Positions 4,991 to 38,267 are shown, counted from the stretch's first letter. The stretch is 64,000 nucleotides of DNA from Deltaproteobacteria bacterium RBG_13_43_22 (GCA_001797675.1 MGQB01000001.1:137968-201967), one strand, 5' to 3'. Program-made: numbers and translations. The notes: generated by a model not told the origin, from the sequence alone.

Positions 4991-7429
4991 ATGTCAAGCT
5001 TAGAAGAGTACCGGAACCGGCCAATGCGTAACACCTTCTATTTTCTAATCATTCTATCAATTGCTATTTTCCTTATTGCAATAACCATTCCGGTTCTTCC
5101 TTTTGATTCCGATCAGGCCATCGTGGGATTGATGAGTAAACATATCCTAAACGGAGCCTTCCCCTGGCTTTATTATGGGGACTCCTACAGCGGCATTCTT
5201 GAGCCCCTTCTGGTTTCCTGGTCTTTTCTGTTTTTTGGAATAAACCAGTGGAGTCTTCATCTGATTCCCGGGTTATTTTCAATCCTTTTTATCATTTCTA
5301 TTTATCAGCTTGCTCGAGAGCTTTTTAACCGGGAGATGGGCCTGCTCAGTATGCTCCTGGCCGCAATTCCCCTTTTTCCCATGGGTTACTATCGTTCCCT
5401 GGCCTATGGGGGATATATTGAAATCCTCTGGCTGGGCAATATTATTCTGCTGATCAGTCACCGTCTGGCACTTCAAAAAAAAGAGATATCTCTTTTACTT
5501 CTGTTCTTTTTTGGCCTCCTTTGGGGAATCGCCTGGTGGACCTATCCGATCAGTATTGTCTATCTCATAGCCGGTTTTTCTTTTCTTTTCCTTATCCGAA
5601 GGGAATTGGCCTTCAATGGCAAACTTCTATCCTCAATTTTTGGGTTCTTCCTGGGCAGTACCCCCTTCTGGATTTGGAATGGGCTGAATCAATTTCCATT
5701 CCTGTCTTTTTCCCAATCCCAGGAAAATCCTGATTATTTCTATCGATTCCAAAGATTCTATCATAAGTTCATAGAGTTTTTTACAACCGGTCTCAAGGGG
5801 GATGTAAATTTACTCGCTTTTATTACAGCCGCTTTTTTTGGACTAAGCCTCTTTTTTTTAATCATAGGCCATAAACGGCTTCGAAGGCAATTTCCGGCAA
5901 ACCGGGGATCTACCCTTCTATTGCTTTTTTTTCTGATTTTTTGTTCAACCTACATCGGCTCCCGGTTTAGTGAGCAGAACGCCTCAAGGTATCTCTTGCC
6001 CCTTTATTCCCTTATCCCTATCACTATGGCTCTGGTCTGTTACACCTTCAAAAAAACCAGGAAAATTATTTTTTTCGGTTTGTTCGCTCTTCTCTTTTTG
6101 ATCCATATCTATCACCAATTTTCCCTGAATCTTTTCTTACAAAACTTCTCGGTCCAACACCGGAAACAACTGGCGATTGAACAAACCCTTGTTGATTTTA
6201 TAAGAAAAAAAAATATATCTTATGTGTATACACCGGAATATTGGAGTGCCGCCAAGCTGACGTTTAATGCCAATGAGTATCCGGTCTTCTGCCAACCCTT
6301 TAAAGAGCGATACCCCCTCTACACCTTAAGGGCCGATGCCCTTCTCAACCCGTTCTTCGTCCTGGAAGGGAAATACCGCCAAAGCTTTGAAGAAATGTTT
6401 AAGGCCGCCGGGGGCTCGTATAAAAAAGAAGTTTTTTCGTCACAGGAAAAAATAAAAGGCTATGTCCTTTATTACGATTTTCACCCCCCGGTATCGGATG
6501 GTCTGGAAATTCTGCCTGATGGCTGGAAAGGGAAAAGCAATAGTAGCCCGGACTCGAAAGGTCTGGCTTTTGACCGCAATATATCCTCCTTTTGGACATC
6601 ATCCGCCCCGCAACAATCAGGGATGTTTTATCAAATCGATCTGGGCAGGGTTTACCAAATAAAACGGGTTGTCTTTGGGTGCGGCAAAGGGAAGGAAAGG
6701 GATTTTCCGGCCTTTTATCGGATAGAAATATCCGCCAAGGAGGGGGATTGGAAGAAAGTCGCCTCTGTTAAAAACAATTGGACCTATCTGTTTTGGTCCG
6801 GGGGACGTCCCTTCTGGAAATTAAAAGATGGTCGGATAGAAATCAATTTCTGTCCCCAGGAGGCCCGATTTATCAGGGTCACTCTGACTGGTCCGGCCCC
6901 TCAGGCCTGGTCCCTCGGGGAAATATTCGTTTATCAAACCCACGAGCGGCCTGAATCAAAACCCGTCTCCGCGGAAGAACTGATTTCATTCTTATCGAAA
7001 GAAAAAATAGAATATGTCTACGCCGACTTTGGACTATCCGCCCAAATCACCCATCACACACAAGGCACGATAAAATGCCTTCAGGAAGACTATGACCTCA
7101 CCTTTGGAGAGGATTCAGGCCTGGGAGGATATAATGGTGCCTTTCCTTATTTAAATCGGTTAAAAAAAGTTGTGGATTTTTCCCTTAGACCGGCCTTTGT
7201 GGTCGCCAGAGAAAACCAACCTTCTTTTATCCGAGCCTTGGATACAATCCATGTTACTTATTCAGTTAAAAACTTTCGAGATCATATCCTTTGCTATGGA
7301 ATAAAAGTTTCAGGGCCGGGGAAGATCAAAGGAGAAGGACGTTTCGGGTCTTTTTATTGGAATGGCACCCACCTGTTGCCTATGGGTCAAACAAAACAAC
7401 TTATTACCGGTTCCTCAGCCCCTTCCTGA
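4991..7429 (+). CDS. ArnT/PMT (GT39)-like GT-C membrane glycosyltransferase with one C-terminal F5/8 type C (discoidin) domain
   Basis: 812 aa. First-loop motif PFDSDQAIVGLMSKHILNGAFPWLYYG. About 11 hydrophobic helices. Discoidin-type segment AFDRNISSFWTSSAPQQSGMFYQIDLGRVYQIKRVVF ... ARFIRVTLTGPAPQAWSLGEIFVYQ (about nt 6503-6940). Clear paralog of the ORFs at 25994 and 35553. Confidence 0.75.
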   Translation: MSSLEEYRNRPMRNTFYFLIILSIAIFLIAITIPVLPFDSDQAIVGLMSKHILNGAFPWLYYGDSYSGILEPLLVSWSFLFFGINQWSLHLIPGLFSILFIISIYQLARELFNREMGLLSMLLAAIPLFPMGYYRSLAYGGYIEILWLGNIILLISHRLALQKKEISLLLLFFFGLLWGIAWWTYPISIVYLIAGFSFLFLIRRELAFNGKLLSSIFGFFLGSTPFWIWNGLNQFPFLSFSQSQENPDYFYRFQRFYHKFIEFFTTGLKGDVNLLAFITAAFFGLSLFFLIIGHKRLRRQFPANRGSTLLLLFFLIFCSTYIGSRFSEQNASRYLLPLYSLIPITMALVCYTFKKTRKIIFFGLFALLFLIHIYHQFSLNLFLQNFSVQHRKQLAIEQTLVDFIRKKNISYVYTPEYWSAAKLTFNANEYPVFCQPFKERYPLYTLRADALLNPFFVLEGKYRQSFEEMFKAAGGSYKKEVFSSQEKIKGYVLYYDFHPPVSDGLEILPDGWKGKSNSSPDSKGLAFDRNISSFWTSSAPQQSGMFYQIDLGRVYQIKRVVFGCGKGKERDFPAFYRIEISAKEGDWKKVASVKNNWTYLFWSGGRPFWKLKDGRIEINFCPQEARFIRVTLTGPAPQAWSLGEIFVYQTHERPESKPVSAEELISFLSKEKIEYVYADFGLSAQITHHTQGTIKCLQEDYDLTFGEDSGLGGYNGAFPYLNRLKKVVDFSLRPAFVVARENQPSFIRALDTIHVTYSVKNFRDHILCYGIKVSGPGKIKGEGRFGSFYWNGTHLLPMGQTKQLITGSSAPS

Positions 7430-10412: not shown

Positions 10413-13298
10413 ATGATAAAGTTGAAGATCATTCAAAAACCTCATTTTCTGCTTGATCTCCTCAGGTCCTTATTTTATAATTCTTTACGCAAAGACTCTT
10501 CAGGGAATATCTCTTTCTCCCCTCATAAGGCCAAAATGAATTGGCAGACCGTAACTTTTTTCAATTATTTCAAATTTAGTAAAGAGGAATGGATAAAGGA
10601 TCTATCTTCTCATCTTTTCCTGGCACTCTTGGTCATTTTTAAGTTCTGGGACTATTTAAATCCCTATGGTGAGTTCTATTGGGCGGGCGACTTTCTTGAA
10701 GTCACCCCGATGCGGGACTATTTTTACCACAACTTAAAGAAAGGAATCCTGATCCTTTGGGATAGCCATATTGCCACCGGAATGCCTTATCTGGCTGCAG
10801 ATTATGGAGTTTTTTACCCGATAGATTTGCTTATGGGGATTCTGGGTCAAGATTATTTTGTCCCTTATCGACTCGCATTAATTCATGCTTTGCATTTTTG
10901 GTTGGGTGGTCTATTTACTTTTATCTATACCCGCCAATTAGGCCTTTCCCGTTTCCCTGCTCTGACAAGCTCCATTTGTTTTATACTGGGAGGTTTTTTG
11001 CTTGGACATGCCTATCATCGAAATGTAATACAAACCTATATCTGGTTTCCTTTAATCCTTTATTTTTTAGACAAAGCCCTTCATCACCGTAATGCCATCT
11101 GGGCTATGGTGGCTGGACTAATTCTGGCTGTATCTTTCCTGGCCGGTCATGCCAATTTTTTTTATTTTATCATCTTATTTTTAGCCTTTTATTTCCTTTT
11201 AAGGGTCTACCTGGGAATACAAGAAAAAAATTGGAGAAACATGACCGTGGACGCCTCTTATTTCATGATCATGGGTATCTTTTGCCTGGGAATCTCAGCG
11301 ATTCAACTGTTTCCTGTTGTTTTCACCAGCCTGAATACCCATCATGCATCTTTTCCTTTCGAATGGAAGGCCCAGCTTCCCTTTCCGCTTTTCAATCTGA
11401 TTCATTTCCTCATCCCGGATTATACCCAATGGGCGGCTTTTGATATTGGGGAGCAATACGGATACATAGGCGTCCTGCCCTTACTCTTTGCTATCTGGAG
11501 TATTTTTCAAATGAGAGATAAAAGGGTCATTTTTTTTGCATTGGTTGCTTTTTTTGCCTTTATCGCCTCTCTGGGTGAACTCACTCCCTTATATAAAATC
11601 CTTTATCATTTCCTTCCCGGTCTTAACCAATTCCGTATCCCGAGCCGGTTTAATGCCTTGATCATCTTTCCGCTGGCCGTTTTGGCCGGCTTCGGATTTC
11701 AATTCTTTCTCGATCAAAATAATCGTGAACAACCGACCAGAATAAAGGAATCTCTTAAGGGCTTCCTTTTTCTTTTTTTGGGATTAGGCCTTATTATCTT
11801 TTCTTATTTAGAGTTCTTTTACTTGCCTTCTCTCGAATCAACAAAACTTTCTTCCGGCCCTTGGGGATTATTACGGAAAGGTTTTTTTTGGTTTTTATTC
11901 CTCTGGGGGGCCTCCTATTGTTTGATCTCCCGAAGGAACCAAAACCGTTCCACCCTTTTATTAAAAATTTTCATGGTTGTTTTGATTAGCATCGATTTGC
12001 TCTTCTTGGGCCGAATTGAAGGCGGCGGATCACCAACCGATCCGGCCCTTATTTCTCCTCAGGCCCAAACAATCATCAAGGAGATAAAAAAAGGGGCCTC
12101 TCCTTTCAGGATCAGCAATCGAGAAAAACAATTATCTCCGTTGTCTTTATCCCGGGAAGGTATCTCCGATTATGACGCAGATAACTGGGTGGGTTATATT
12201 GGGACGATTGTTCCTCAAGAATATCTGGGGATCTATTTTCTCATTAACAAAAACCCTGCGCTGCTGGATCTTATAAATGTGAGGTATTACATCGGTTCCA
12301 AGCTAAAAATGAATACCGGGCCGAAGGAATTCAAGATCGGGGGGACCGGTGAGGATAAGGAATTTTTCCTGAACTATCCGATAAAAATATCCAGTCTGAT
12401 TTTATATACTTCCTTAGCGAATTCCACCTCTATCCCTCAAGGGCAAACCGTCGCCAGGATTCATTTTCAAAAAAAGGACGGCTCCATCCGACCAATATCT
12501 ATTCGAGCCGGCATAGAAACGGCAGAGTGGGCCATTGACCGCCCCGGTTTGCGGTGTTTTCATCAAAAAGCCCAGGTTGCCGAATCCTGGGAGATCTCCC
12601 ATGAAGGCTACCAGGGGCATGCTTATATTTTTAAAACGACCTTCTCAGTCCCGATAGAGATTTCAAAAATCCGCTTTGAATACCTCGGCGATCAAGGGAG
12701 CCTGATAATTAAAAAAATGTTAATTAATAATTTGGAGATCGATGCAATATACCCGGAGATAATAAAAGAACGGTTTCAATGGATCGCCCCGAATATTTAT
12801 AATAATAAATTTTGCCTTCCAAGAATTTTTATGATCAGCAGGGCCAAAGTCATTCCCGAAGAAAAAGTATTGTTGAAAAACCTGGAACAGTTGGATCCCC
12901 GGGATCATGTTTTATTGAACCACTTGCCTCCGGACTATCTTGAACCGGTGGATTCCGGTTTTTCAACCCAGGAAGCTGAAATAAATCATTATTCTTCCGG
13001 CAAGATAAAAATTACCACAAAGGCCAGGGTCGATAAATTTTTAATCCTTAGTGATACTTATAGCCCTTATTGGAAAGCTATGATTGATCAAAGAGTCATG
13101 CCCATCTTAAAAGCCGATTACGGCCTCAGAGGCCTATATGTGCCCAGGGGAAATCATCAAGTAGAATTTTCGTTCCATTTCTACCCATTTTATTACGGGT
13201 TGGCCATTAGCTGTTTCAGCCTATTGATGCTCATTATTACTTTCTGTGGCCTATTTATCCGAAACCGGATCCGCCATGAAAAACCTTCTTGTGATTAA
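10413..13298 (+). CDS. YfhO-like polytopic membrane protein (GT-C family candidate)
   Basis: 961 aa. It has a multi-helix N-terminal half, a large extracytoplasmic domain and a final C-terminal helix. The ending YSPYWKAMIDQRVMPILKADYGLRGLYVPRGNHQVEFSFHFYPFYYGLAISCFSLLMLI matches the YfhO-family C-terminus as I remember it. Confidence 0.6.
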   Translation: MIKLKIIQKPHFLLDLLRSLFYNSLRKDSSGNISFSPHKAKMNWQTVTFFNYFKFSKEEWIKDLSSHLFLALLVIFKFWDYLNPYGEFYWAGDFLEVTPMRDYFYHNLKKGILILWDSHIATGMPYLAADYGVFYPIDLLMGILGQDYFVPYRLALIHALHFWLGGLFTFIYTRQLGLSRFPALTSSICFILGGFLLGHAYHRNVIQTYIWFPLILYFLDKALHHRNAIWAMVAGLILAVSFLAGHANFFYFIILFLAFYFLLRVYLGIQEKNWRNMTVDASYFMIMGIFCLGISAIQLFPVVFTSLNTHHASFPFEWKAQLPFPLFNLIHFLIPDYTQWAAFDIGEQYGYIGVLPLLFAIWSIFQMRDKRVIFFALVAFFAFIASLGELTPLYKILYHFLPGLNQFRIPSRFNALIIFPLAVLAGFGFQFFLDQNNREQPTRIKESLKGFLFLFLGLGLIIFSYLEFFYLPSLESTKLSSGPWGLLRKGFFWFLFLWGASYCLISRRNQNRSTLLLKIFMVVLISIDLLFLGRIEGGGSPTDPALISPQAQTIIKEIKKGASPFRISNREKQLSPLSLSREGISDYDADNWVGYIGTIVPQEYLGIYFLINKNPALLDLINVRYYIGSKLKMNTGPKEFKIGGTGEDKEFFLNYPIKISSLILYTSLANSTSIPQGQTVARIHFQKKDGSIRPISIRAGIETAEWAIDRPGLRCFHQKAQVAESWEISHEGYQGHAYIFKTTFSVPIEISKIRFEYLGDQGSLIIKKMLINNLEIDAIYPEIIKERFQWIAPNIYNNKFCLPRIFMISRAKVIPEEKVLLKNLEQLDPRDHVLLNHLPPDYLEPVDSGFSTQEAEINHYSSGKIKITTKARVDKFLILSDTYSPYWKAMIDQRVMPILKADYGLRGLYVPRGNHQVEFSFHFYPFYYGLAISCFSLLMLIITFCGLFIRNRIRHEKPSCD

Positions 13299-14131: not shown

Positions 14132-14133
14132 TC

Positions 14134-17513: not shown

Positions 17514-18341
17514 ATGGATAAACATCCGGGGGGTCCCAAAATTTGTTTTCTAACCATGGACCTGGAAAATGACTGCGGAGGACGTATCGGACCGGTCTTT
17601 GATACTATTAACGAAAAAAATATTCGCAAGTTGATAAATTTTATCAATAATCAAAACGTTCCGTTAACCTTATTTATTACCGGCCGACTCTTTGAAGAAA
17701 AAAGGAGGGAACTCCAATTAATTCAGGAGGAAATAAAAACGATAGAGTTTGCCCTCCATTCCTACTCTCATCCCAATCTTTTGAATGATTATTCCGAGGA
17801 AATTGAAAAGGCCGTATCAGCCTACAAGGATTTTATGGGAGTGCCCCCTTTGGGCTACCGGGGACCACAAGGAAAAATTTCCAAGGTAGATTTTGAATGT
17901 CTTAAAAAACACCGCTTTCAATACGATTCCAGTATCATACCCACCATCCGGCCCGGGGTTTTTAACAACAGAAAAATGCCCAAAGGACCTTATTACCTGG
18001 ACGAGTACAACTTATGGGAAATTCCTTGTTCGGTTTTCCCCTTTACCGGCATTCCTATGGGTTTAGGACATCTCCGCCTGCTGGGACCAACAGTTACAAA
18101 ATTTCTTTTTTCATTTTTACCGCTGCTGCCGGTCATCGTATTCGTCTTTCATCTGCATGATATTATTCAAACAGAACATGCTGATAAACTGCAGGGTGCT
18201 TGGAATTTCTTTTATCGAAGGAATGTTGACCAGGGTTTCAGTCTCTTTGGCTTTGTGATCGAGGATCTTAGGAAAAAAGGTTATGGTTTTGATCTGATGA
18301 AAAATGCTCAAGCTAATCCAGTGCAGAACTTTCAACTTTAA
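17514..18341 (+). CDS. Polysaccharide deacetylase family protein (CE4/NodB-like)
   Basis: 275 aa. Motifs: FLTMDLENDCGG and ALHSYSHPNL (H-x-x-x-H type metal motif). Last gene of the operon. Its 3' end overlaps the convergent gene by 29 nt. Confidence 0.6.
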   Translation: MDKHPGGPKICFLTMDLENDCGGRIGPVFDTINEKNIRKLINFINNQNVPLTLFITGRLFEEKRRELQLIQEEIKTIEFALHSYSHPNLLNDYSEEIEKAVSAYKDFMGVPPLGYRGPQGKISKVDFECLKKHRFQYDSSIIPTIRPGVFNNRKMPKGPYYLDEYNLWEIPCSVFPFTGIPMGLGHLRLLGPTVTKFLFSFLPLLPVIVFVFHLHDIIQTEHADKLQGAWNFFYRRNVDQGFSLFGFVIEDLRKKGYGFDLMKNAQANPVQNFQL

Positions 18342-20942: not shown

Positions 20943-21797
20943 TTATTTTAGGAGTTCTCTTCTTAATTTGGCGATTTGATCAGAAACGAGTCCAAAAAAG
21001 AAAATGAGTATGCCGATTAAAAAAATAATTAATGCGGATACCGATCCTCTGTTCAATAAAAAATAGGTAAACAAATAAAATAAAATTCCTATGGAAGCAA
21101 GAACAAAACTGACGGGGATGAATATCCGTAAGGGATTAAACAACGTTATGATTCTGAGAACCGACAACAAAGATTCAAACCCGGTTTTAACGGTCACCGA
21201 GCTCTTACCGATCCTTTTCCTTATTTTGATGTCCATAAATTTTACGTTATAATTATCACTTAAAAAAGCGAGAAGACTGGTCATGGAAAAGGAGAAACGG
21301 TCCGGACAGATCGACAAATATTTTAAAATAATCTCCTTTTTATATACCCGGAACCCCGAATTAATATCTGGAATCTTTTGTCGGGTCAAGTAATTGGCCA
21401 GAAAACCCAAAAGCCATTTTCCGGGCATTCTCCACAGACTGCTGTGAATGATCTGATTACGTGAACCGACAACCAGATCATAATTATCCATATACTGTAG
21501 GAGAGGTTCTATTTCAGACGGATCATGCTGGCCGTCCCCGTCCATAATCAATACCTGATCGGCCTTGGCTTCTTTAATGCCGCACTTTAAGGACGCCCCA
21601 TATCCTTTGTTAACCGGATTCCGGATTAATCTAACGCTAAACTGCAAAATGATCGCTGCCGAATTATCCAAAGAACCATCATCCACGACAATAATTTCCC
21701 AATCTTTCCCCTGGACGACAGAAATCAATTCGTTTAAGACCTCCCCAATAACCGCTTCTTCATTAAAAACCGGGATGACAATGCTTAACTTAGGCAT
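20943..21797 (-). CDS. GT2 polyprenyl-phosphate sugar synthase (ArnC/GtrB/DPM1-like) with two C-terminal TM helices
   Basis: 284 aa. Motifs: LSIVIPVFNEE, VVDDGSLDNS and IMDGDGQHDP. C-terminal helices IFIPVSFVLASIGILFYLF and ALIIFLIGILIFFFGLV. Confidence 0.8.
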   Translation of the reverse strand: MPKLSIVIPVFNEEAVIGEVLNELISVVQGKDWEIIVVDDGSLDNSAAIILQFSVRLIRNPVNKGYGASLKCGIKEAKADQVLIMDGDGQHDPSEIEPLLQYMDNYDLVVGSRNQIIHSSLWRMPGKWLLGFLANYLTRQKIPDINSGFRVYKKEIILKYLSICPDRFSFSMTSLLAFLSDNYNVKFMDIKIRKRIGKSSVTVKTGFESLLSVLRIITLFNPLRIFIPVSFVLASIGILFYLFTYFLLNRGSVSALIIFLIGILIFFFGLVSDQIAKLRRELLK

Positions 21798-25000: not shown

Positions 25001-25464
25001 TGGGCTTGGGCCACCGATAGAGGGGTTACAGCAAACAAGGCTGCGGCCATTAACCCGATATGTCTGTTCTGAAATATTCTTTTCCCTAAAAAATAAAGTA
25101 ACCATATATTTAATGTACTAAAAATAACCGAAGTAATTCTCCCGATGAGGACCATATCAGGATCAACTTCAGTTTGAATCTTGTAAAAACTGAAGATAAT
25201 GCCGAACAAGAAAGCAATTTTATTAATAACAACATATACGATAGCAATGCAATAATTATATACAAAATACCAAGTTTCCAGACCCACCTGTGAAAAATCA
25301 CCTTGGATCATTTGATAGATTATTGTGCAATCTCCCTGTTCATCAGGATGAAGGGCAGTGGTGGAATTCAGACCCCACATTATCCCCCATAAACGGAAAA
25401 CTAAACCTATTACTATTATTAAGAAAAGCAGGTAGGTGTACGATTTTGAGACTTGATTTTTCAT
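22027..25464 (-). CDS. ArnT/PMT (GT39)-like GT-C membrane glycosyltransferase with C-terminal TPR repeats and beta-rich module
   Basis: 1145 aa. First-loop motif ALHPDEQGD after an N-terminal helix. About 12 helices. TPR-like segments AVQFFETSRQQDPENLESLALLGSACFADGKKVDALNYFKSVEEKDP and YQAHADYKSAIDLFQKLFNLSPDYNDVGWNLGNLLIQTG. Confidence 0.7.
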   Translation of the reverse strand: MKNQVSKSYTYLLFLIIVIGLVFRLWGIMWGLNSTTALHPDEQGDCTIIYQMIQGDFSQVGLETWYFVYNYCIAIVYVVINKIAFLFGIIFSFYKIQTEVDPDMVLIGRITSVIFSTLNIWLLYFLGKRIFQNRHIGLMAAALFAVTPLSVAQAHYLEMDSPLAFMATLSFMFSYFILTHKRSLFFALGGLFFGLTFTTKPNGILTCIPFFISFCYLFFDESFKKVRISLLKRILLFITTSLAGFVIGAPGLFVNFPSTVDRIFGKTLEMAKQSLPWTGSWIEGPQGSRFAWAIQTLMDGFGGILILITIIGITYHLLRKNKEVLMICSFPIGYFFLVGLWGRRFGERDVVVMIPFLALMAAAFFYKFLHYWYSWRFKKTVMTILFLGLLVWPTWKTIEIDYYYWLDDNRDLAEKWLNQNLPSESVVALDGYTPYSIKFSKIDFEYLKPIEYYKNNCDFLVISSLEGDRYFSLWTHRPIKPEGENLLSLQRYFTLIKEFDLKHQETGIEKNGSLKFPDFLDPALRVYSTKAGPIKHKISFPALIEDADSSYKVVFLNHPEYEKSSSIFVVKPYSEAVRVLRTTKKLKQIQLIVYSENQAKVKIKCGSAKKERQMESGQIEILEMEPSPAFPFIKNIYQLKAFSQSKGNLYVKWVADPVEMGLNRLRFKQPKKAVQFFETSRQQDPENLESLALLGSACFADGKKVDALNYFKSVEEKDPFFLSNYFALAKSTLTGEAWLKLFCDFTGFYLPLIQIKSTHHYVLPDQCTYSEKVNRISKEGFIGEYNRGDDGLLYFKLWSRDVFPQGFFNVHFRLSAVSSAAGVGPALRVDILKHTPQGFFQIAEKVIDNNEIQKSNGGLQNISFNITNDPRVGQFEFRVFSFHKEVQFIIKQVDIYLDLKKAMEENMKQILSAMASTYQAHADYKSAIDLFQKLFNLSPDYNDVGWNLGNLLIQTGHHRDGMVFLKKYEALNQNNPSKLKTLYDRYQKINEPVAAEVVKKRIDNLPFPQTASRAVFSGKIQLMGYSLEQTKGKGGDILKGSLFWKGLEKMDLDYDVFLHVLKNDQMLFQGHLLIQEGEKTLDSLIPGEIIKKDFQIKIPADITAGTYKIYLGLWDSRYSERRLKISYPSPYSFKDKFLLTTITID

Positions 25465-25993: not shown

Positions 25994-28783
25994 TTGCCCC
26001 CCTGCCTTCAGATAAAGCAGCAAAAGAGGCTTCAAACTGTGAAAAAAATTTTTAATTTTTGTCCCAAAATAAATCTTCCCCAAAAACCCTCTTTTTATCT
26101 TATCCTTATCATCTTTATTGGACTTGTCATAAGAGTCCCTTATCTCAGTAAATACCATTATGTGCTTAATATGGATGAAGCGGTATTTGGGATTATGGCA
26201 CAGGATATCATCAATGGTAAAGGAATCCCCCTTTTCTTTTACGGACAGGCCTATTTCGGTCCCCTCGAGGCCATTTTTGCGGTCCCCTTTTTCCTGATTT
26301 TCTCACCCAGCACTTTAATCCTGCGTATTTCGGTTTTGGTTTTGACCTTGCTGGCTCTGGTTTTATTCTGGCGAGGACTTCGGGTAATGGTCCGGGACAG
26401 CAATGGATTGACGCTTATGGGCTGGCTGACTGTTTCCCCTCTTGTTCTAAGTGTTCGATCAATCCACCCATCAGGTCACATGGGGGGTTTATTTTGTGGA
26501 AGCCTGGTTTTTTATCTTGCCGTCAGGGTGATCACTTCCCCAAGAAGGAATGGATTGAATTTCTTTTTATGGGGACTGGCTTCCGGATTCGGATTATGGA
26601 TGCATCCGGGAACACTGACCTATATCATTGCTGGCGGATGTATGATCCTGTTAAACGATTTCCGAATTTTCCGCAACTTTCCGTTATCTATTCTGGGATG
26701 TTTAGCCGGCGGATTTCCCTTCTGGATAAAAACCATCTCCTTACGTTATGCCACCTTCAATTTCGGGCAGACCAAACTGAACGGGTCGCTTTTACTCCCT
26801 TTTATTAAGGATATGAAACAATCCCTAACCAACATGAACACCTTACTTGGGTACGATATATTCCCTAAATTTATTTCCCTGACTATCTGGGGTTGTATCA
26901 TTTTTCTACTGCTGTTCAGTTTCTTCTTATTTTTAAGGCGTAGGAAGGGCAGGTTTTCCCGTGAGGAATTGGTTCTGGTTTTTGCTTGGCTGGTCATTAT
27001 ATTAACTCTCTTTGCCTATAGTTATATTCAAGCCCGCCGTTTTGGATACGTCAGCTATCGTTATTATATTCCGATGCTCATAGGGCTGGCTTTAATTTTT
27101 GATATTGTTTTAACCTGGGTCGGAAAGCGATCACCTAATTTGAGACTTCTGTTATTTCTATTTTTAATCATCATCAATATAGGGACAAATTTCCTGGGAT
27201 TTAAAAACCAGCTTTATTTTCGATACGAATTCCTCCTTGGAGAGTCCTACACTCGATGGAAAAGTCTTCCCCCTTTCTTGGAGCAAAAGGGGATCAAGGA
27301 AGCCTATATTAATTTTTTTGAAGAAGGGCCTCTTAACTTCATATCCCGAGGAAAAATGATCTTCAGCGATTTTTATGACAGCCGCTATCCCCTTCGATCC
27401 CAGGCAGTCGATGGCAGCCTTAATCCGGCCTTTATTTTCCAAGACCCCAAAGAAGCCGAGCTTTTCAAACAAGGTCTTGGGTCATTAGGAAACACCCGCT
27501 ATTCATTTTTTCAATCACCAGGTCATATATTTTTTTACAACATTAAGGCCCCTGAAGATGTATATACCCCTATCGACCGAGATAAAATTCTAATTTCAAC
27601 CCATCCCAACCATCAATGGTCTCGTTTTTTATTAGATGGAAACATGGCCACAAAGTGGTCAACCGATGGAGTACAAAAAGGCGATGAATTTATTTCCCTT
27701 GATTTACAGAAAGAAATTGAGCTGGCTCGAGTTGACTTGGTTCCCCCTTGGTTGGATACTTATCCCATTCATATCCGGATAGAGACCTCCTTGGATAATC
27801 GAAGATGGACGGTTGTGACCGATAGAGAGATATCGAATACCTTGTTTTGGGCTGGACCGCATCCGGGTTATAAAGTTTGGGAAGGTTTTTTTCAATTTAT
27901 CTTTCGCGGGCAGAGGGCCCGTTATGTTCGGATAAAGCAAACCGGGCACTCGCCAATGCCCTGGGAACTGGCTGAAATTTTCTTATATACTTCACGACCA
28001 GGGGAACAGGCTGTTTCCTCGATCGATTGGGAGTCCATCACGGCCTTTTTAAAAAAACAAGGGATTAAAAGTGTGGTTTCCGATCTGTTCTTTTCCCCCA
28101 ATATCATGAAATACTCGCAGGGAGAGGTCAGAGCCACTCCCCGGTATAATGGCGCTTATCCTGACCTTAGGGTAAGGCCGGGTTATTCCCCGGACCAGAT
28201 TGAGGCTCTAAGTATTCACCAAAGAGACCGGGCAGAAGTAATAGCTTTTTTAAATCGGAACCAATGGCAATATCAAGTTCAACCCTTTGGAGAATATACG
28301 CTGTTCCATCATTTAATAAATCCCTTGCCCTTTACCAGACAACTTGATATCAGGGAAGCAGCCCTAACCACCAGCCATAATCAAAAAGATACTCTATCCA
28401 TGATCGACAAGAACAGAAATTCGAGGTGGACAAGTCTGACTCCCCGGGAAACCGGAATGTTTATTCATTGTGATTTAAAAAAAATCCAAAAGATATCGGC
28501 CCTCATCCTTGATCCTGGTCCGCATATCCAGGATATCGCCAATGATCTCGATTTGTTCTACTCCCTTGATGGACTTCATTATCAAAAAATAGACCAGAAG
28601 GGACGTTTTCATCAACACTTCCGCTGGACCGGAAGCCATCTGATTGGCAGTGGGACTTCATCGGCTTACATTTTTTTGCCTATTGAGGCCCGATACTTGA
28701 AGATCGTTTGTAGGGAAAATAATAATAGCTACTACTGGTCGATCGGGGAATTGGAGATACTGGGACCACCGGAAGGTAGCTAA
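25994..28783 (+). CDS. ArnT/PMT (GT39)-like GT-C membrane glycosyltransferase with two F5/8 type C (discoidin) domains
   Basis: 929 aa from the TTG at 25994. The in-frame GTG at 26039 is an equally plausible start. Loop motif NMDEAVFGIMAQDIINGKGIPLFFYGQAY. Discoidin-type segments DGNMATKWSTDG...WELAEIFLY (about nt 27590-27990) and DKNRNSRWTSLTPRETGMFIHCDL...YYWSIGELEILG (about nt 28360-28765). Confidence 0.75.
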   Translation: MPPCLQIKQQKRLQTVKKIFNFCPKINLPQKPSFYLILIIFIGLVIRVPYLSKYHYVLNMDEAVFGIMAQDIINGKGIPLFFYGQAYFGPLEAIFAVPFFLIFSPSTLILRISVLVLTLLALVLFWRGLRVMVRDSNGLTLMGWLTVSPLVLSVRSIHPSGHMGGLFCGSLVFYLAVRVITSPRRNGLNFFLWGLASGFGLWMHPGTLTYIIAGGCMILLNDFRIFRNFPLSILGCLAGGFPFWIKTISLRYATFNFGQTKLNGSLLLPFIKDMKQSLTNMNTLLGYDIFPKFISLTIWGCIIFLLLFSFFLFLRRRKGRFSREELVLVFAWLVIILTLFAYSYIQARRFGYVSYRYYIPMLIGLALIFDIVLTWVGKRSPNLRLLLFLFLIIINIGTNFLGFKNQLYFRYEFLLGESYTRWKSLPPFLEQKGIKEAYINFFEEGPLNFISRGKMIFSDFYDSRYPLRSQAVDGSLNPAFIFQDPKEAELFKQGLGSLGNTRYSFFQSPGHIFFYNIKAPEDVYTPIDRDKILISTHPNHQWSRFLLDGNMATKWSTDGVQKGDEFISLDLQKEIELARVDLVPPWLDTYPIHIRIETSLDNRRWTVVTDREISNTLFWAGPHPGYKVWEGFFQFIFRGQRARYVRIKQTGHSPMPWELAEIFLYTSRPGEQAVSSIDWESITAFLKKQGIKSVVSDLFFSPNIMKYSQGEVRATPRYNGAYPDLRVRPGYSPDQIEALSIHQRDRAEVIAFLNRNQWQYQVQPFGEYTLFHHLINPLPFTRQLDIREAALTTSHNQKDTLSMIDKNRNSRWTSLTPRETGMFIHCDLKKIQKISALILDPGPHIQDIANDLDLFYSLDGLHYQKIDQKGRFHQHFRWTGSHLIGSGTSSAYIFLPIEARYLKIVCRENNNSYYWSIGELEILGPPEGS

Positions 28784-32812: not shown

Positions 32813-33958
32813 TTGAATGTATTTCACAATATTGGCCCAAAAAAAATTATTCGGGAAGGACTGATTATTCTTCCTTTAGTTGCCCTGGGATTCCTGTCAA
32901 TTCTTTTCTTATATTCCTTAAAGTTTAATAAGAATATTACCGGCTTTATGGTCATAGGGGATTATTTTAAGGCCCCTCAAATTTGGACAGCCGAAACCCT
33001 CATTCAGAAAGACAGTGTCGGGTATGACGGCCAATACTACTATTATATCGCTCATGATCCATTCATCCTGGGACAATCCTATGACCATATAGATTTCCCG
33101 GCCTATCGTTATCAACGCATTATTTATCCCCTGTCCGCCTGGCTGCTGTCCTTTGGTCAACCGACCTTGATTCCCTGGATGATGATGGCAGTGAATCTCA
33201 TCGCAATCTTATTGGGGACCTGGTTTCTTATTATGATACTCCAACATTTTGGCCGTAGCCCATGGTACAGTCTGTTCTATGCCGGCCTCTGGGGATTTTT
33301 ACTTTGCCTTTTGCGCAGCCTGCCGGAACCGTTGGCTATCACTTTTATGGTCATGGCCGTCTTTTTTTATCTTAAAGGAAAAACCTTCCAGCAGACCCTT
33401 TTCCTTACCTTGGCCGGTCTCACCCAAGAGACCACCTTACTGGTTAGTCTGGCTTTCCTTTTTTACTTTTTCGGAAAAAAGGATTTTCGAAAATCCCTTT
33501 ATATGCTCTTACCTCCCGTGGCTTATTTCGTTTGGCAACTCTATCTTTATGCTCATTTTCAGACCTTTTCTTTTCTGGGGGGAACCCAAAATTTCGGACC
33601 CCCTTTCATGGGAATCACGGAAAAATTTTATTCTCTGAGCCAAGGGAGCCTCTCCTATGAAATAATTTCCGAACTCTTATTTTTATTTTTGATCTCCGTC
33701 CTTATCATCGCGGCCCTTTTTGACATCTTTAAATATTACAGTCCCCTTACCCTGTCCTTCCTGGGATATGCCCTGATGACCGCCTTATTGAATCATTTGA
33801 TCTGGGTCGAACCCTGGTCCTATGCCCGAGTCACATTAGGTTTATTGGTTTTTAATCTTTTGATCTTTACAAAATATGGAAGAAAGCTTAATCTGTTTCC
33901 TATGTTCCTGATTCCTGTTATCTTTTTGCTGTCCTTATTGTCGATGAAGCTGTTGTAG
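32813..33958 (+). CDS. Polytopic membrane protein (about 10 helices), possible small GT-C/PIG-V-like protein
   Basis: 381 aa from a TTG start; the true start is uncertain. The first extracytoplasmic loop contains SVGYDGQYYYYIAHDPF, which is reminiscent of the D-x-x-W/Y-Y..IA motif of PIG-V/GT-C-type mannosyltransferases (from memory). Confidence 0.45.
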   Translation: MNVFHNIGPKKIIREGLIILPLVALGFLSILFLYSLKFNKNITGFMVIGDYFKAPQIWTAETLIQKDSVGYDGQYYYYIAHDPFILGQSYDHIDFPAYRYQRIIYPLSAWLLSFGQPTLIPWMMMAVNLIAILLGTWFLIMILQHFGRSPWYSLFYAGLWGFLLCLLRSLPEPLAITFMVMAVFFYLKGKTFQQTLFLTLAGLTQETTLLVSLAFLFYFFGKKDFRKSLYMLLPPVAYFVWQLYLYAHFQTFSFLGGTQNFGPPFMGITEKFYSLSQGSLSYEIISELLFLFLISVLIIAALFDIFKYYSPLTLSFLGYALMTALLNHLIWVEPWSYARVTLGLLVFNLLIFTKYGRKLNLFPMFLIPVIFLLSLLSMKLL

Positions 33959-33968
33959 CTAAAAATCA

Positions 33969-34083: not shown

Positions 34084-35532
34084 ATGGTTAAAATTATTTT
34101 TAGACATTTAATGATCTTTCTCTCATGTCTCTATCTAATAACTGCCGGGTGTTCCTCCTCCCAAGACGCCAATTTCTCCGAACCTCGATGGGCAAAAAAA
34201 TACCTAATCGGTACCTACTATTACCTCTGGTATCCGGGGAACTGGCGGGAAGGATATATCAACGGCCGATTGCTTCCCCAGCAATTACCGGCCCTGGGAC
34301 AGTATGATTCCTCGGATCTGAAAACCATTGAACAGCATATCGCCTGGTCCTCTCAATACGGGATTGATTTCTGGGCTATCAGTTGGTGGCCGGACCATCC
34401 CGAATTGGACAAGATAATTCGAGAAAAAATCCTTAAGGCAAAAAATATTAATGATATTAAATTCTGTATCTTTTACGAATCGGCCGGCCTTGGACTGAAA
34501 GAGGATCGAATTGTTTTTACCTCTGATAAGAGTGAAAAATTGCTCTCTGACTTCAAGTTTTTAGCAAAAAACTATTTCTCCCACCCCTCTTATTTGAAAA
34601 TCAATGAGCGTCCGGTGGTTATCATCTATTTAACGCGGACCTTTATTGGAGATTACCCGGAGGCTATCAGTAAACTAAGAAAAAGCCTCCAAGAGATGGG
34701 GTTCAATCCTTTTCTTATCGGAGATGAAATCTTCTGGTATGTCATGCGCCCAAATCCTCTCCCTCCTTCCCCCCATCCAGAAATGAATCGGATCAAATTG
34801 TTTGATGGAATTACCGCTTACAATATGTATAATTGGGCAAAGCCAAAACAAATGGGTTATGGGAATCAGAGTACCTTTCTTTCTGAAGTTCAGGGGCGTT
34901 ACCGGGAGTACCAATTGGCAATCGATAAAAAAATCAAGCTTATTCCTTCCACCATCCCGGGTTATAACGACCGAGGGGTTCGTCTTTCAGATAATCATCC
35001 GGTAATTCCTCGTCGATTCGACCCTGGCGGGGAAGAGGGGTCTTTTTTCGTTCAAGCCCTTAAACAAACGGTTTTACCTTTTTTGGATCGAGAGATGCCT
35101 ATGACCTTGATCACCTCTTTTAATGAATGGAACGAAGGGACCCAGATTGAACCGACTCGCGAAACGAACGTCACCAGCCAGGATCACAGTCCCACCAAAA
35201 CCGATTATACTCAAGGATATGCTTACCAGGGCTATGGGGAAAAGTATCTTTCCATCCTCCAAAATACGTTCATGGCGGTTAGTGGGCAGGTGATGGATGA
35301 ACAAGGGGGAATTCCCCTGACAAAGGTTGATCTGAGGGTCTTTCAAGGAGAGACCCTGCTCGCAACTGCCTTGAGCGACAGCCGGGGATTTTACAACCTC
35401 TCCCGCCTGAATCTCCCACCCGGTCACTATGAAGTCAGGGCAAATACCCCCGGGTACCAAGAAATTAGGACCGGAATTCGAGTGGACGCAAACAAGAAAG
35501 CCCCTCTTATCCTTGAAATGAAGAAAAAGTAA
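34084..35532 (+). CDS. GH99-like glycoside hydrolase lipoprotein (endo-alpha-mannosidase family-like) with C-terminal CarboxypepD_reg-like beta-sandwich
   Basis: 482 aa. Lipobox LITAGC. Segments GTYYYLWYPGNW, LGQYDSSDLKTIEQHIAWSSQYGIDFWAISWW, IPSTIPGYNDRGVR and LITSFNEWNEGTQIEPT line up with the MANEA/GH99 sequences I remember. C-terminal module VSGQVMDEQGGIPLTKVDLRVF...GHYEVRANTPGYQ. Confidence 0.75.
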   Translation: MVKIIFRHLMIFLSCLYLITAGCSSSQDANFSEPRWAKKYLIGTYYYLWYPGNWREGYINGRLLPQQLPALGQYDSSDLKTIEQHIAWSSQYGIDFWAISWWPDHPELDKIIREKILKAKNINDIKFCIFYESAGLGLKEDRIVFTSDKSEKLLSDFKFLAKNYFSHPSYLKINERPVVIIYLTRTFIGDYPEAISKLRKSLQEMGFNPFLIGDEIFWYVMRPNPLPPSPHPEMNRIKLFDGITAYNMYNWAKPKQMGYGNQSTFLSEVQGRYREYQLAIDKKIKLIPSTIPGYNDRGVRLSDNHPVIPRRFDPGGEEGSFFVQALKQTVLPFLDREMPMTLITSFNEWNEGTQIEPTRETNVTSQDHSPTKTDYTQGYAYQGYGEKYLSILQNTFMAVSGQVMDEQGGIPLTKVDLRVFQGETLLATALSDSRGFYNLSRLNLPPGHYEVRANTPGYQEIRTGIRVDANKKAPLILEMKKK

Positions 35533-35552
35533 ACCGACAAGGGCTAATAAAA

Positions 35553-38267
35553 ATGTTCAAAAATACAAGAGGCCTCGTTTTATTAATGGCTTTAATTCTG
35601 TTGGTGGGGGGAATACTTCGCCTCCTCTTCCTGGTAACGCCCTATATGGATTCAGATCAGGCTGTTAACGGATTGATGGCCCGTCATATTCTCCAGGGAG
35701 AATTCCCTTTCTTTTTTTACGGTCAGGATTATTGTGGAAGTATTGAGGCCTATTTGGTTTCCACCGTCTTTTTTTTATTGGGTCCATCCCGTTTCATGCT
35801 CAATTCGGCCATCGGTCTGGAATCGCTCTTTTTCATCATCTTGATTTATTTTTTGGCCTGGACTATCGCCGATAAAAAAACAGCCCTCCTGGCGGCCTTG
35901 TTTACAGCCGTTCCTTCTTATTACTTGTTTTTCCACTCGGTCCTGGCCAGGAGTGCCTATATTGAAATACCGATCATCGGAGTCCTTCTTTTTATTATCA
36001 GCCAAAAAATAGTTTATCGTGATGAATCACAAAGCCGGAATTTTTTATTGTTGGGTTTTCTGTGCGGCCTGGGGATTTGGACCCATTTCTTAATCATTTT
36101 TTACCTGCCGCCTATCTTCCTTCTTCTTTTCATCAAAGACCAATGGTTCTGGGGCCGTCGGACCATCCTTTTCCTGTTACTGGGCCTGATACTGGGCGGA
36201 TTGCCCCTCTGGATTCATAATAGCGTCCATCCCCTGGTTACCTGGCATTATCTAATGAACACATCCGGGGGCTCAGAACCGGTTTTGACCTCTTTAAAGG
36301 ATTTTTTCCTCTTTCGTTTTCCAGAGGCCTTGGGATTGAGAAACAACGAAACCGCGAGATTTACTATACCTTATTTCTCACCGGTTCTGTATCTCATTTA
36401 CCTGGGTTCCTTTGTATTCCTGCTCATTTCTGGAAGAAAGGGCTTTATTCGTTTATTCAGACTAAAAATAGAACCGGACAATGGTCGAGTTCTGCTTCTG
36501 CTTTTTCTTTTGCTCTATCCGCTGATCTTTTCCTTCAGCGGATTTGCCTCGGCCCATACCAGCCGTTATTTGCTGCCGTTATTTTCAGTGTTGCCAATCC
36601 TGTATGCTGTTTTTACCAAAAAATTACAATCCTTTTATGGAGCCTGGGCATTTCTTTTTATAATCTTAACCCTTTTTTCCAATATTTATGGCACGGTTAC
36701 CAGGGTTCCCCTTTTCAATAATAACCAAGTCAAACAATTCCACGAGGCCAGAAAAAAGGAGCAAGATTTATTTAAATTCTTAAAAGAAAAAAATATTAGG
36801 CGGGTGTACTGCCATGACTATTGGATATCGGAACAATTAAAATTTGACTCCAAGGAGGAGATCATCTTCGCTCAACCTATGTATGATCATTATCCCCCTC
36901 ATACCGATTTGGTTGATCGGGACCCGAGAGCTGCTTTTCTTTTCCAGGGAGATAATAAGGATTTTGAATCCACTTTAAAAAATATCGGGGGCACCTTTCA
37001 GAAAAGCCAGGTCTTCGGATATAGTATTTATCATACCTTCTCCCCCCCCTCCTTCCGGTTTATTGAACTGGATCCGACCCCATTTACAGCGGCGGCCGAT
37101 TCCAATCCCATAGAAAGGATAAACATTTTTGATCGGGATCTGAATACCCGCTGGTCTTCCCAGGCCCCGCAGAAACCCGGGGTCAATCTCCAAATCGATT
37201 TGGGCCAAGTTGTTCCCAATCTGGGTCGGATCACCCTCTTGTCCGGAAAAACGGAAGATCTACCGCGGAGGATTCAGCTGGAAATCTCTCTCGATGGCCG
37301 AAAATGGCAAACAATTCGTGAAGCCACCGGGTTATGGGGGGACCTGTTCTGGTCCGGTCCCCACCCCTTTTATCGTCCCGGGATTGGTCGGGTCGATATC
37401 ACCTTTTCTTCCCGGTCCGGCCGTTTTTTAAGGCTGACCCAACTCGGGAGCGATCCAACTTATTATTGGTCCGTGGCCGAATGCTTTATCTTCCAGGCTC
37501 AGGCGCAGCCCACATCCCAACCGGCACCTTGGGATGTGACCCAATTGATTTCTTATTTAAACCGTTTTAACATCTCCAATATTTTTACCACCCCCTGGAT
37601 CCAATCCCAGTTACCCCTGGACTGGCGGGAAAAACAAAAGTCTTTGGTTCTCCAAGAAGGGAAGGATGGACAAGTCCAGACTCTTTCCAGTCCGGTCTTT
37701 GTGGTCGAGAAAGACAATTCAACTGCCTTGACCCATTTTTTAATAAATAATTTTAAGCAGCCTTATCAAGAACAGGAAATAAGCGGCCAGGTCGTTTATT
37801 CCTTTCCCCCGTCATCCGATCGATTTCGACCTCTCTCACCTAAGAATTGGCGTTTTCAGACTAATTATAATCCCCAAAAAGCTTCACTGGCCGCGGACGG
37901 GAAGATGTCCACCCGCTGGACCACAGATAGGCCGCAAGTCCCCGGAGCTTACTTTCGAATCGATTTAGGGCGCATGGAAAAGGTCGCCCGAATTCGTTTT
38001 TTAGTAGGGGAATCGATCAATGATTTCCCTCGAGGATATTCAATCCGTTATTCAGCTGATGGGCAAACCTGGACCTTATTGGACTCAATCATAAGTCCGG
38101 TTTCCCTCCATTGGACCGGGGAAACCCTCTTAAAGGGCGGAAAGGATCTGGATTTAACCTTTCCATCCACGTCGATGCGTTATCTTCAAATTAATAATAC
38201 CGGAAAAGACAACGTGTATTATTGGTCGATCCACGAGGTGGAGATTTATGAAAGGCAAAATAATTAA
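35553..38267 (+). CDS. ArnT/PMT (GT39)-like GT-C membrane glycosyltransferase with two F5/8 type C (discoidin) domains
   Basis: 904 aa. Loop motif YMDSDQAVNGLMARHILQGEFPFFFYGQDY. Discoidin-type segments DRDLNTRWSSQAPQKPGVNLQIDLGQ...YYWSVAECFIFQ (about nt 37060-37500) and DGKMSTRWTTDRPQVPGAYFRIDLGR...VYYWSIHEVEIYE (about nt 37840-38255). Confidence 0.75.
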   Translation: MFKNTRGLVLLMALILLVGGILRLLFLVTPYMDSDQAVNGLMARHILQGEFPFFFYGQDYCGSIEAYLVSTVFFLLGPSRFMLNSAIGLESLFFIILIYFLAWTIADKKTALLAALFTAVPSYYLFFHSVLARSAYIEIPIIGVLLFIISQKIVYRDESQSRNFLLLGFLCGLGIWTHFLIIFYLPPIFLLLFIKDQWFWGRRTILFLLLGLILGGLPLWIHNSVHPLVTWHYLMNTSGGSEPVLTSLKDFFLFRFPEALGLRNNETARFTIPYFSPVLYLIYLGSFVFLLISGRKGFIRLFRLKIEPDNGRVLLLLFLLLYPLIFSFSGFASAHTSRYLLPLFSVLPILYAVFTKKLQSFYGAWAFLFIILTLFSNIYGTVTRVPLFNNNQVKQFHEARKKEQDLFKFLKEKNIRRVYCHDYWISEQLKFDSKEEIIFAQPMYDHYPPHTDLVDRDPRAAFLFQGDNKDFESTLKNIGGTFQKSQVFGYSIYHTFSPPSFRFIELDPTPFTAAADSNPIERINIFDRDLNTRWSSQAPQKPGVNLQIDLGQVVPNLGRITLLSGKTEDLPRRIQLEISLDGRKWQTIREATGLWGDLFWSGPHPFYRPGIGRVDITFSSRSGRFLRLTQLGSDPTYYWSVAECFIFQAQAQPTSQPAPWDVTQLISYLNRFNISNIFTTPWIQSQLPLDWREKQKSLVLQEGKDGQVQTLSSPVFVVEKDNSTALTHFLINNFKQPYQEQEISGQVVYSFPPSSDRFRPLSPKNWRFQTNYNPQKASLAADGKMSTRWTTDRPQVPGAYFRIDLGRMEKVARIRFLVGESINDFPRGYSIRYSADGQTWTLLDSIISPVSLHWTGETLLKGGKDLDLTFPSTSMRYLQINNTGKDNVYYWSIHEVEIYERQNN

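Follow-up and report, generated by a model that had tools for sequence, protein, structure and literature searches.

Three putative GT-C glycosyltransferases with repeated discoidin-type modules in a glycan island of an uncultured deltaproteobacterium

What would three paralogous membrane proteins gain from carrying lectin-like domains at their C-termini, and on which acceptor would they act? This question is raised by a 64,000-nucleotide stretch of the genome of Deltaproteobacteria bacterium RBG_13_43_22, an uncultured bacterium of the sulfate-reducer type (GCA_001797675.1, MGQB01000001.1:137968-201967; the whole stretch is hereafter the window), in which an earlier note, made from the sequence alone, had seen three related genes and proposed that they encode glycosyltransferases tethered to lectin modules that bind their own acceptor or product. 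The reading that we favour, at a probability of roughly 0.65, is that these proteins are periplasm-facing glycosyltransferases of the GT-C superfamily which use a lipid-linked donor and carry CBM32 modules binding the glycan acceptor or product, a surface glycopolymer being the most likely acceptor. The three genes are:

4991..7429, plus strand: paralog 1 (P0001), 812 residues; GT-C membrane domain, alpha/beta domain 1, discoidin domain, alpha/beta domain 2 and a short vestige of discoidin domain 2; orthogroup B
25994..28783, plus strand: paralog 2 (P0002), 929 residues from a TTG start; GT-C membrane domain and two alpha/beta-plus-discoidin modules; orthogroup C
35553..38267, plus strand: paralog 3 (P0003), 904 residues; GT-C membrane domain and two alpha/beta-plus-discoidin modules; orthogroup A

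That the three open reading frames (ORFs) are homologous and share one architecture, as first read by eye, is borne out by E-values from 1e-60 to 1e-89 and pairwise global identities of 23-33%; a homology search of the 3.2-Mb assembly with P0003 gave P0001 at E=1.7e-89 and P0002 at E=3.3e-60, and found these three to be the genome's sole copies of the family. The peptides that the earlier note quoted are all present in the three ORFs, although its list for the middle domain exchanged the second and third proteins: RVYCHDYW comes from the ORF at 35553 and EAYINFFE from that at 25994. Within 25994-26041 the true start of P0002 is more likely GTG 26039 than TTG 25994; the TTG appears to lie too far upstream, because AAGAGG (a GAGG ribosome-binding site) is well spaced before GTG 26039 and because the alignment with the closest ortholog (in genome G001) begins only at residue 30.

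Our evidence on the membrane domain comes chiefly from an AlphaFold2 (AF2) model of P0003, made with 48 homologs as input (predicted local distance difference test score, pLDDT, 87.6; predicted template-modelling score, pTM, 0.80). It has 11 transmembrane (TM) helices, a first outer loop (residues 26-79) holding two short helices, and a long connecting helix (390-412) after the membrane domain, followed in order by a beta-alpha-beta-alpha-beta-alpha-beta-beta domain (413-500), a beta-sandwich (505-650), an alpha/beta domain (660-755) and a second beta-sandwich (765-902); crude hydropathy counting of TM helices was too noisy, and the helices of the model were used instead. With Foldseek, the membrane part matched AftD (6wbx, E=3e-11), ArnT (5f15; of the solved membrane domains this one fits best, with a TM-score of 0.60 on the target), AglB (3waj) and STT3 (7oci). 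The Pfam family PMT_2 (PF13231, gathering cut-off 26.1) was reported in P0001 (35.6 bits) and P0003 (29.1 bits), while the same search found neither PF02366, PMT proper, nor MIR domains in any of the three proteins. Sequence and profile searches of the PDB gave CBM32-type matches only and nothing for the membrane domain, and NCBIfam offered no usable family for P0001-P0003. By the predicted fold of P0003 and by homology, P0001-P0003 belong to the GT-C superfamily, to its PMT_2/ArnT-type clan. The label "ArnT-like" given earlier stands at the level of fold and clan but goes no further, as the ArnT equivalog model PRK13279 had no match to P0001-P0003 at E<=0.01 in NCBIfam and matches, weakly, only the separate PMT_2+TPR protein of the window.

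The GT-C/PMT clan is defined by an acidic motif in external loop 1 and by a donor-phosphate-binding Arg before TM10, near which lies a Tyr, as with Y345 of ArnT (PMC7801869). We aligned 43 full-length homologs, namely the three window proteins, 38 relatives from the same taxonomic family and two from a further genome (G037); the 41 homologs referred to below are the three window proteins and the 38 relatives, without the G037 pair. None of the 41 departs from the loop-1 Asp (D35 in P0003), the residue after it being Gln or Glu, and the same 41 carry Arg or Lys at position 338 with Tyr339 (P0003 numbering) in the loop 330-336/337 between TM9 and TM10. In the window proteins these motifs lie at:

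5102..5119, plus strand: P0001, first-outer-loop motif FDSDQA, with candidate catalytic Asp41
5984..6001, plus strand: P0001, SRYLLP motif, whose Arg-Tyr in the pre-TM10 loop is a candidate donor-phosphate contact
26168..26185, plus strand: P0002, first-outer-loop motif NMDEAV, Asp61-Glu62
27056..27073, plus strand: P0002, YRYYIP motif, Arg-Tyr before TM10
35646..35663, plus strand: P0003, first-outer-loop motif MDSDQA, Asp33 and Asp35
36561..36578, plus strand: P0003, SRYLLP motif, Arg338-Tyr339 in the short outer loop before TM10

Because both clan hallmark positions are kept, all three window proteins look catalytically competent. A related arrangement is seen in ORF12 of Citrobacter youngae, the founding member of GT136, which works in periplasmic glycosylation as part of a "three-component" system (Kelly et al. 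2024, PMC11127046) and in which D31, E34 and R349 are essential; its acidic pair D31/E34, where outer loop 1 begins, and its R349-Y350, towards the end of the membrane domain, occupy sequence positions similar to those of D33/D35 and R338-Y339 in P0003, a likeness of position and not one established by alignment. Outer loop 2 (residues 130-138) has orthogroup-specific signatures (ARxAYIE, AxGGYIE, SGHMG, GGH(L/E)E and EARxHYP), and could be a seat of paralog-specific chemistry.

In the two G037 homologs, encoded in tandem (L069/L070, G037:C1:3208147-3213585), the loop-1 Asp is replaced by Glu and Arg338 by Ala; these copies may be mechanistically divergent or inactive.

On which side of the membrane do the soluble domains lie? 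P0003 has a short basic N-terminus predicted to be inside, lysine and arginine are enriched in the predicted cytoplasmic loops (five in loop 294-311), and the model topology puts loop 1, which is large and acidic, on the outer side together with the C-terminal half. Since there are 11 TM helices and the N-terminus is inside, the soluble C-terminal domains are predicted to be periplasmic and so to share a side with the catalytic first loop; a cytoplasmic placement, which the earlier note had named as the outcome that would speak against it, is at odds with both the AF2 topology and the distribution of positive residues.

The C-terminal beta-sandwiches are CBM32/discoidin domains by sequence and by fold, as had been proposed from their F5/8 type C signature. 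Pfam F5_F8_type_C (PF00754, cut-off 28.2) scores 45 bits over one stretch in P0001, 80 bits over two in P0002 and 89 bits over two in P0003; a profile search of PDB sequences gave the chitosan-binding modules 4zz5/2rva as the best matches (E about 5e-10; 4zz5 E=4.7e-10); and Foldseek matched P0003 to the tandem CBM32 structure of ZmpB (7jnd, E=3e-13) and to 4lks (TM-score 0.67 on the target, 24% identity). The other outcome that the earlier note had named as speaking against it, C-terminal domains that miss the F5/8 type C profiles, thus did not arise.

The soluble half does not, however, follow the tripartite plan with a single middle domain that was first described: the domains named are present, but the middle domain occurs twice, in a repeat of alpha/beta plus discoidin. 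In P0003, residues 395-645 match 650-904 by BLASTP at E=2e-26 over 250 columns, and profiles of alpha/beta-1 and alpha/beta-2 align by hhalign with 99.2% probability (E=5.7e-20). The C-terminal half is, on this sequence comparison, a repeated module, full in P0002 and P0003 and present about one and a half times in P0001, which keeps the second alpha/beta domain and has its discoidin-2 reduced to a vestige of about 45 residues. A frameshift or pseudogene was ruled out as the cause of this shortening; as no discoidin remnant lies downstream of the P0001 stop in any frame, and as all orthologs are about 800 residues long (48-64% identity; a search of 12 same-genus genomes found them in 10), the shortening is old and fixed. 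The domains are placed as follows:

6128..6508, plus strand: P0001 alpha/beta domain 1 (the "middle domain" of the earlier note)
6542..6910, plus strand: P0001 F5/8 type C (CBM32) domain; Pfam, residues 518-640, E=1.2e-11
6953..7321, plus strand: P0001 alpha/beta domain 2 (the middle domain a second time), by profile comparison
27200..27571, plus strand: P0002 alpha/beta domain 1
27617..27964, plus strand: P0002 discoidin domain 1; Pfam, residues 542-657
28007..28333, plus strand: P0002 alpha/beta domain 2, by profile comparison
28343..28768, plus strand: P0002 discoidin domain 2, by Pfam
36708..37067, plus strand: P0003 alpha/beta domain 1; pLDDT 87 when modelled alone
37059..37499, plus strand: P0003 discoidin domain 1, by Pfam, PDB profile and AF2 model
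37515..37823, plus strand: P0003 alpha/beta domain 2, by BLASTP and hhalign repeat match
37824..38255, plus strand: P0003 discoidin domain 2; Pfam, residues 772-895

The alpha/beta-1 domain of P0003, submitted alone to a fold search of the PDB, had no significant match (best E=0.027, TM-score <=0.41), and so could not be equated with the periplasmic domain of ArnT or PglB.

The GT-C fold, the CBM32 identity and the shared periplasmic side together support the view of glycosyltransferases tethered to acceptor- or product-binding lectin modules, and we propose the following mechanism for it. A cytoplasmic GT2 enzyme would attach a tailored sugar, probably an amino sugar, to polyprenyl phosphate, and a flippase-like protein would bring the resulting donor across the inner membrane to its outer face; there each GT-C paralog would transfer the sugar to the acceptor, with the invariant loop-1 Asp acting as base and the Arg/Lys-Tyr pair before TM10 holding the donor phosphate. 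The one or two alpha/beta-CBM32 modules would bind the glycan acceptor or product in the periplasm, raising its local concentration or positioning it, a role that carbohydrate-binding modules (CBMs) have in EmbC, AftD and GT136 ORF12. The acceptor would most likely be a heavily modified cell-surface glycopolymer made by the island in which the genes lie, to which the paralogs would add different residues or linkages. The analysis itself shows the homology, the fold with its hallmark residues, the periplasmic topology, the CBM32 identity, the duplicated module, the age of the paralogs and the recurrence of the gene neighbourhood; that the donor is lipid-linked, that the flippase-like protein flips it, that the discoidin domains bind glycan and what kind of acceptor is used are inferred.

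This glycan island exceeds 55 kb, covering 1-38267 of the window and at least 20 kb upstream of it (L073, G000:C1:118000-137967). Its genes in the window that bear on the proposed pathway are:

1791-4919, minus strand: polytopic orphan protein with a big C-terminal soluble part, 1042 residues, flanking P0001
7787-10366, plus strand: LA_3751/LA_3752-like polytopic protein with a big soluble C-terminal part, 859 residues, flanking P0001; E=1.7e-13, below cut-off
10413..13298, plus strand: candidate polytopic glycosyltransferase of the YfhO family, 961 residues
17514..18341, plus strand: CE4 polysaccharide-deacetylase-family protein, which may deacetylate the polymer or an amino sugar while lipid-linked
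18313..19323, minus strand: flippase-like membrane protein (LPG_synthase_TM/TIGR00374), candidate donor flippase
20943..21797, minus strand: GT2 protein, 284 residues, with two C-terminal membrane helices, candidate polyprenyl-phosphate-sugar synthase
22027..25464, minus strand: PMT_2 + TPR protein, 1145 residues, a further GT-C enzyme candidate, divergent from P0002
28879-30777, plus strand: two same-frame ORFs, one of 414 residues and polytopic, the other of 216 residues with a weak chlor_Arch_YYY-domain match
32813..33958, plus strand: membrane protein of the AZOBR_p60025 "cell surface glycopolymer formation" family; E=1.5e-53, 181 bits, cut-off 150
34084..35532, plus strand: GH99/WbsX-like lipoprotein that also has a CarboxypepD_reg domain; the gene stops 20 nt short of P0003

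The GT2 (hydrophobic at residues 209-278) has its best NCBIfam matches in AglJ, PgfS, ArnC and PpgS, all below equivalog cut-offs, and the 1042-residue protein belongs to no family in Pfam or NCBIfam. Sugar-tailoring genes are numerous in the island: besides the CE4 deacetylase there are acyltransferases, a PaaK-type ligase, a KamA-type aminomutase, B12-radical-SAM (radical S-adenosylmethionine) enzymes, SAM methyltransferases, an AsnB-type amidotransferase and an epimerase/dehydratase. The island's other glycan genes include one GT4 and a PA14 protein, and it has two TIGR00374 flippase-like proteins, one in the window and one upstream. The upstream 20 kb hold the AsnB-type amidotransferase, the GT4, a radical-SAM-SPASM protein, the epimerase/dehydratase, a methyltransferase, two more B12-radical-SAM proteins, a hexapeptide acyltransferase and the second flippase-like protein.

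Two further observations concern these neighbours. The ORFs at 28879-30777 are separated by a TGA (30121-30123) and one codon, and hydrophobic sequence runs across the stop; this may be a GT-C-like gene interrupted by a nonsense codon or read through, or an assembly error. Among the genes at 19500-20927, 18313-19323 and 20943-21797 (all minus strand) and at 5263-6246 of a related locus (L075), the B12-radical-SAM protein has its best NCBIfam match in HpnJ (E=9e-75) and the epimerase in HpnA (E=5e-52), and the GT2 has a much weaker HpnB match, all three far below equivalog cut-offs, so that the gene set superficially resembles hopanoid side-chain tailoring and the Arn pathway.

Parts of this neighbourhood recur in other genomes or metagenome contigs. 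One locus (L031) is syntenic with the window, with a GH99/WbsX-like lipoprotein gene before its P0003 homolog, arranged as in the window, and a 381-residue gene in the position of the AZOBR_p60025 gene. In L075, a run of AsnB, B12-radical-SAM, radical-SAM-SPASM, methyltransferase, epimerase, acetyltransferase and flippase-like genes leads into discoidin-type and PMT_2 GT-C genes, and in G037 the two tandem homologs lie beside a flippase-like gene (L074). A TIGR00374-family gene, which is not of the GtrA or ArnE/F type, thus adjoins homologs in the window, L074 and L075, and the trio of GT2, TIGR00374 flippase-like and GT-C genes is found in all three. In another lineage (L032, 8120-12748), a LegC/PseC-type sugar aminotransferase gene, a gene for a 240-residue GT2 and, directly downstream of the latter, a gene for a 30% identical GT-C-discoidin homolog have overlapping ends; this three-gene operon is a compact minimal set.

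Fusion of an extracytoplasmic CBM to a GT-C enzyme, as in the Emb proteins, AftD and GT136 ORF12, is an architectural class and not a homologous family; P0001-P0003 fit this class and differ in CBM type. ORF12, like our proteins, joins a GT-C domain to a C-terminal periplasmic beta-sandwich CBM, which binds the unmodified polysaccharide acceptor, and its partners are a polyprenyl-phosphate-sugar synthase and a flippase, for both of which the island offers candidates. Its CBM is, however, immunoglobulin-like, single and without an alpha/beta linker domain, whereas here CBM32 modules occur in tandem; its donor synthase depends on phosphoribosyl pyrophosphate, its flippase is of another family, and its locus holds one such enzyme where the window has several paralogs. 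The mycobacterial arabinofuranosyltransferases AftD and EmbA/B/C also combine a GT-C membrane domain with several outer-face carbohydrate-binding modules, which bind the growing glycan, and there several paralogous GT-Cs cooperate on one polymer using polyprenyl-phosphate-monosaccharide donors; their CBMs belong to other families, though, their actinobacterial hosts have a different envelope, AftD is much larger and has an acyl carrier protein bound, and its Foldseek match to P0003, while significant, gives a poor global superposition (TM-score 0.19-0.26). ArnT (GT83), the aminoarabinose transferase of lipid A, resembles our proteins in its membrane domain, in PMT_2 and in the logic of its neighbours (a GT2 donor synthase, a deacylase-type enzyme and flipping), but has 13 TM helices, a small periplasmic domain without lectin modules, and lipid A as acceptor. 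The PMT (GT39) and TMTC O-mannosyltransferases of eukaryotes and actinobacteria share the 11 TM helices with N-terminus inside and C-terminus outside, the acidic motif of loop 1, the Arg before TM10 (PMC7801869) and the possession of an appended ligand-binding domain, in their case a MIR beta-trefoil or TPRs; P0001-P0003 have no PF02366, MIR or TPR, their CBM32 modules are C-terminal instead of forming an internal loop domain, and their gene context shows no sign of a protein acceptor. The CBM32s of bacterial hydrolases (DD1/DD2 of a Paenibacillus chitosanase, 4zz5; Clostridium perfringens ZmpB, 7jnd, also in tandem) agree with ours in profile and fold, but are borne by secreted hydrolases or peptidases and not by a membrane glycosyltransferase, and at 10-25% identity ligand specificity is not transferable.

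How old are the paralogs, and which of their parts have diverged? In a maximum-likelihood tree the family falls into five orthogroups, each with 100% SH-aLRT support, with P0001, P0002 and P0003 in three different ones; best orthologs in other genomes reach 70% identity for P0003, 64% for P0001 and 56% for P0002. Because the paralogs sit in separate supported orthogroups that have orthologs elsewhere, the duplications are old and predate the divergence of several genera. Mean identities between and within orthogroups, domain by domain, are:

membrane domain: 25% between orthogroups, 54% within
alpha/beta-1: 27% between, 54% within
alpha/beta-2: 15% between, 42% within
discoidin 1: 32% between, 56% within
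discoidin 2: 34% between, 56% within

Several points weigh against the reading that we favour. The discoidins are the least diverged part between paralogs, and so are no obvious carriers of paralog specificity; a common glycan ligand, with divergence confined to the catalytic sites, would account for this no less well than diverging lectins would, and conservation of the beta-sandwich framework could be another explanation. That the paralogs have different acceptors or linkages, as the earlier note suggested, is plausible. Discoidin domains can, moreover, bind lipid head groups or proteins too. Pfam PMT_2 was not reported in P0002 by itself, and this protein is assigned to the family because it is homologous to the other two (to P0003 at E=3.3e-60). 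The flippase-like protein is of the TIGR00374/LPG_synthase_TM type and not GtrA- or ArnE/F-like, so its flipping role is assumed, and it, the GT2 and other neighbours are well below NCBIfam equivalog cut-offs. A literature search for discoidin or CBM32 together with GT-C found no paper, searches on AZOBR_p60025 and on LPG_synthase_TM with flippase gave nothing relevant, and for every member the support for activity comes from sequence, model and context.

Among the rival explanations the one that survives best, though we consider it unlikely, is that P0001-P0003 are protein O-glycosyltransferases resembling PMT/TMTC or Pgf enzymes, whose discoidins would recognise a protein substrate or sugars already attached to it. 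The Pfam match is indeed to PMT_2, a family of protein O-mannosyltransferase relatives; the island has a TMTC-like PMT_2+TPR protein and a YfhO/PgfM2-like protein, and its GT2 matches PgfS and AglJ of protein glycosylation systems. PMTs also carry a lectin-like domain of their own, MIR. This is countered by the lack of both PF02366 and MIR in P0001-P0003 and by an island that encodes no acceptor candidate such as an S-layer protein, adhesin or pilin, but does encode a glycopolymer-formation protein, a glycoside-hydrolase-like lipoprotein and sugar-tailoring enzymes, all of which suit a polymer. The documented CBM-bearing GT-C enzymes, too, act on polysaccharides (PMC11127046).

Less probable again is a membrane lipid as acceptor, with no polymer involved: lipid A or the lipopolysaccharide core, as for ArnT, or a hopanoid-type or other glycolipid. 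ArnT does provide the best-fitting solved membrane domain, and the logic of ArnC, ArnD and ArnEF is echoed nearby by the genes for the GT2, the CE4 deacetylase and the flippase-like protein, yet the ArnT equivalog model passes over P0001-P0003; and the best matches of the B12-radical-SAM and epimerase neighbours to HpnJ and HpnA, which could point to a hopanoid, are like all the Hpn-type matches well below equivalog thresholds. An acceptor in the same membrane would also leave one or two large soluble CBM32 modules unexplained, and up to 10 match places per genome are hard to square with a single lipid head group. Least likely of the alternatives, and very improbable, is that the proteins are catalytically dead scaffolds or sensors, membrane-anchored lectins with the GT-C fold as a mere anchor, for although the substitutions in the G037 copies suggest that some members may have lost canonical residues, all 41 family homologs, the three window proteins included, keep the Asp and the Arg/Lys-Tyr pair, the membrane domain is conserved within orthogroups like the lectin domains (54% vs 56%), and donor-making genes are tightly linked.

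A bolder extension of the glycopolymer reading, which we regard as doubtful, is that the island is a periplasmic assembly line, in which seven to nine polytopic GT-C-type enzymes would make most of the glycosidic bonds of a heavily tailored surface glycopolymer from polyprenyl-phosphate-monosaccharide donors, with the tandem alpha/beta-CBM32 modules as processivity clamps or rulers that pass the chain between paralogs. Candidates for this role are the three discoidin paralogs, the PMT_2-TPR, YfhO, LA_3751-like, YYY-domain and AZOBR_p60025 proteins and the 1042-residue orphan. Such a system would resemble mycobacterial arabinan synthesis, whereas the host here is of a Gram-negative Thermodesulfobacteriota lineage.

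The carriers of the family are uncultured Thermodesulfobacteriota, known as metagenome-assembled genomes from groundwater and soil. In the window's taxonomic family, 20 of 21 genomes have 2-10 match places each (fragments counted), and among 201 genomes sampled evenly across the phylum these proteins were present in two taxonomic families only, the window's own and that of G037. This confinement holds for the phylum sample only, as an exhaustive HMMER search of 1.84 billion representatives gave hundreds of divergent clusters: 596 at 50% identity and E<=1e-30. Typical lengths among these are about 650, 800 and 900 residues, which suggest one, one-and-a-half and two modules.

Variation in the appended part goes further. 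In orthogroup D (L062-L067, from related genomes and absent from the window), whose loop-1 motif is YYDEA, the region between the discoidins is not the alpha/beta repeat but a different, probably helical segment (e.g. ...DWEEAHQLLGQAL...). One protein (P0070) unites PMT_2, F5/8 type C and alpha/beta-hydrolase domains, and a 1030-residue fusion of PMT_2 and alpha/beta-hydrolase adjoins the discoidin GT-C genes in L075 (9961-13053); such fusions appear to be a further appended-domain variant of the same membrane enzyme.

The combination of GT-C enzyme and CBM is already known, in mycobacteria from EmbA/B/C and AftD and in enterobacteria from GT136 ORF12 (PMC11127046), and no concept is overturned by the P0001-P0003 family. 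What is new here is the type of lectin, the repeated alpha/beta-CBM32 module, an alpha/beta domain without a solved relative, and the expansion into several paralogs in an unstudied lineage. There are few ways to approach acceptor choice by GT-C enzymes, the appended carbohydrate-binding modules being one, and few cases (Emb, AftD, GT136) have been studied. With natural variants of about 650, 800 and 900 residues, consistent with 1, 1.5 and 2 modules, with at least five old orthogroups side by side in related genomes, and with 596 clusters that make it a sizeable, unstudied family, these proteins could allow a comparative study of how acceptors are recognised in periplasmic glycosylation; they also point to a heavily modified envelope glycan in uncultured Thermodesulfobacteriota of groundwater and soil.

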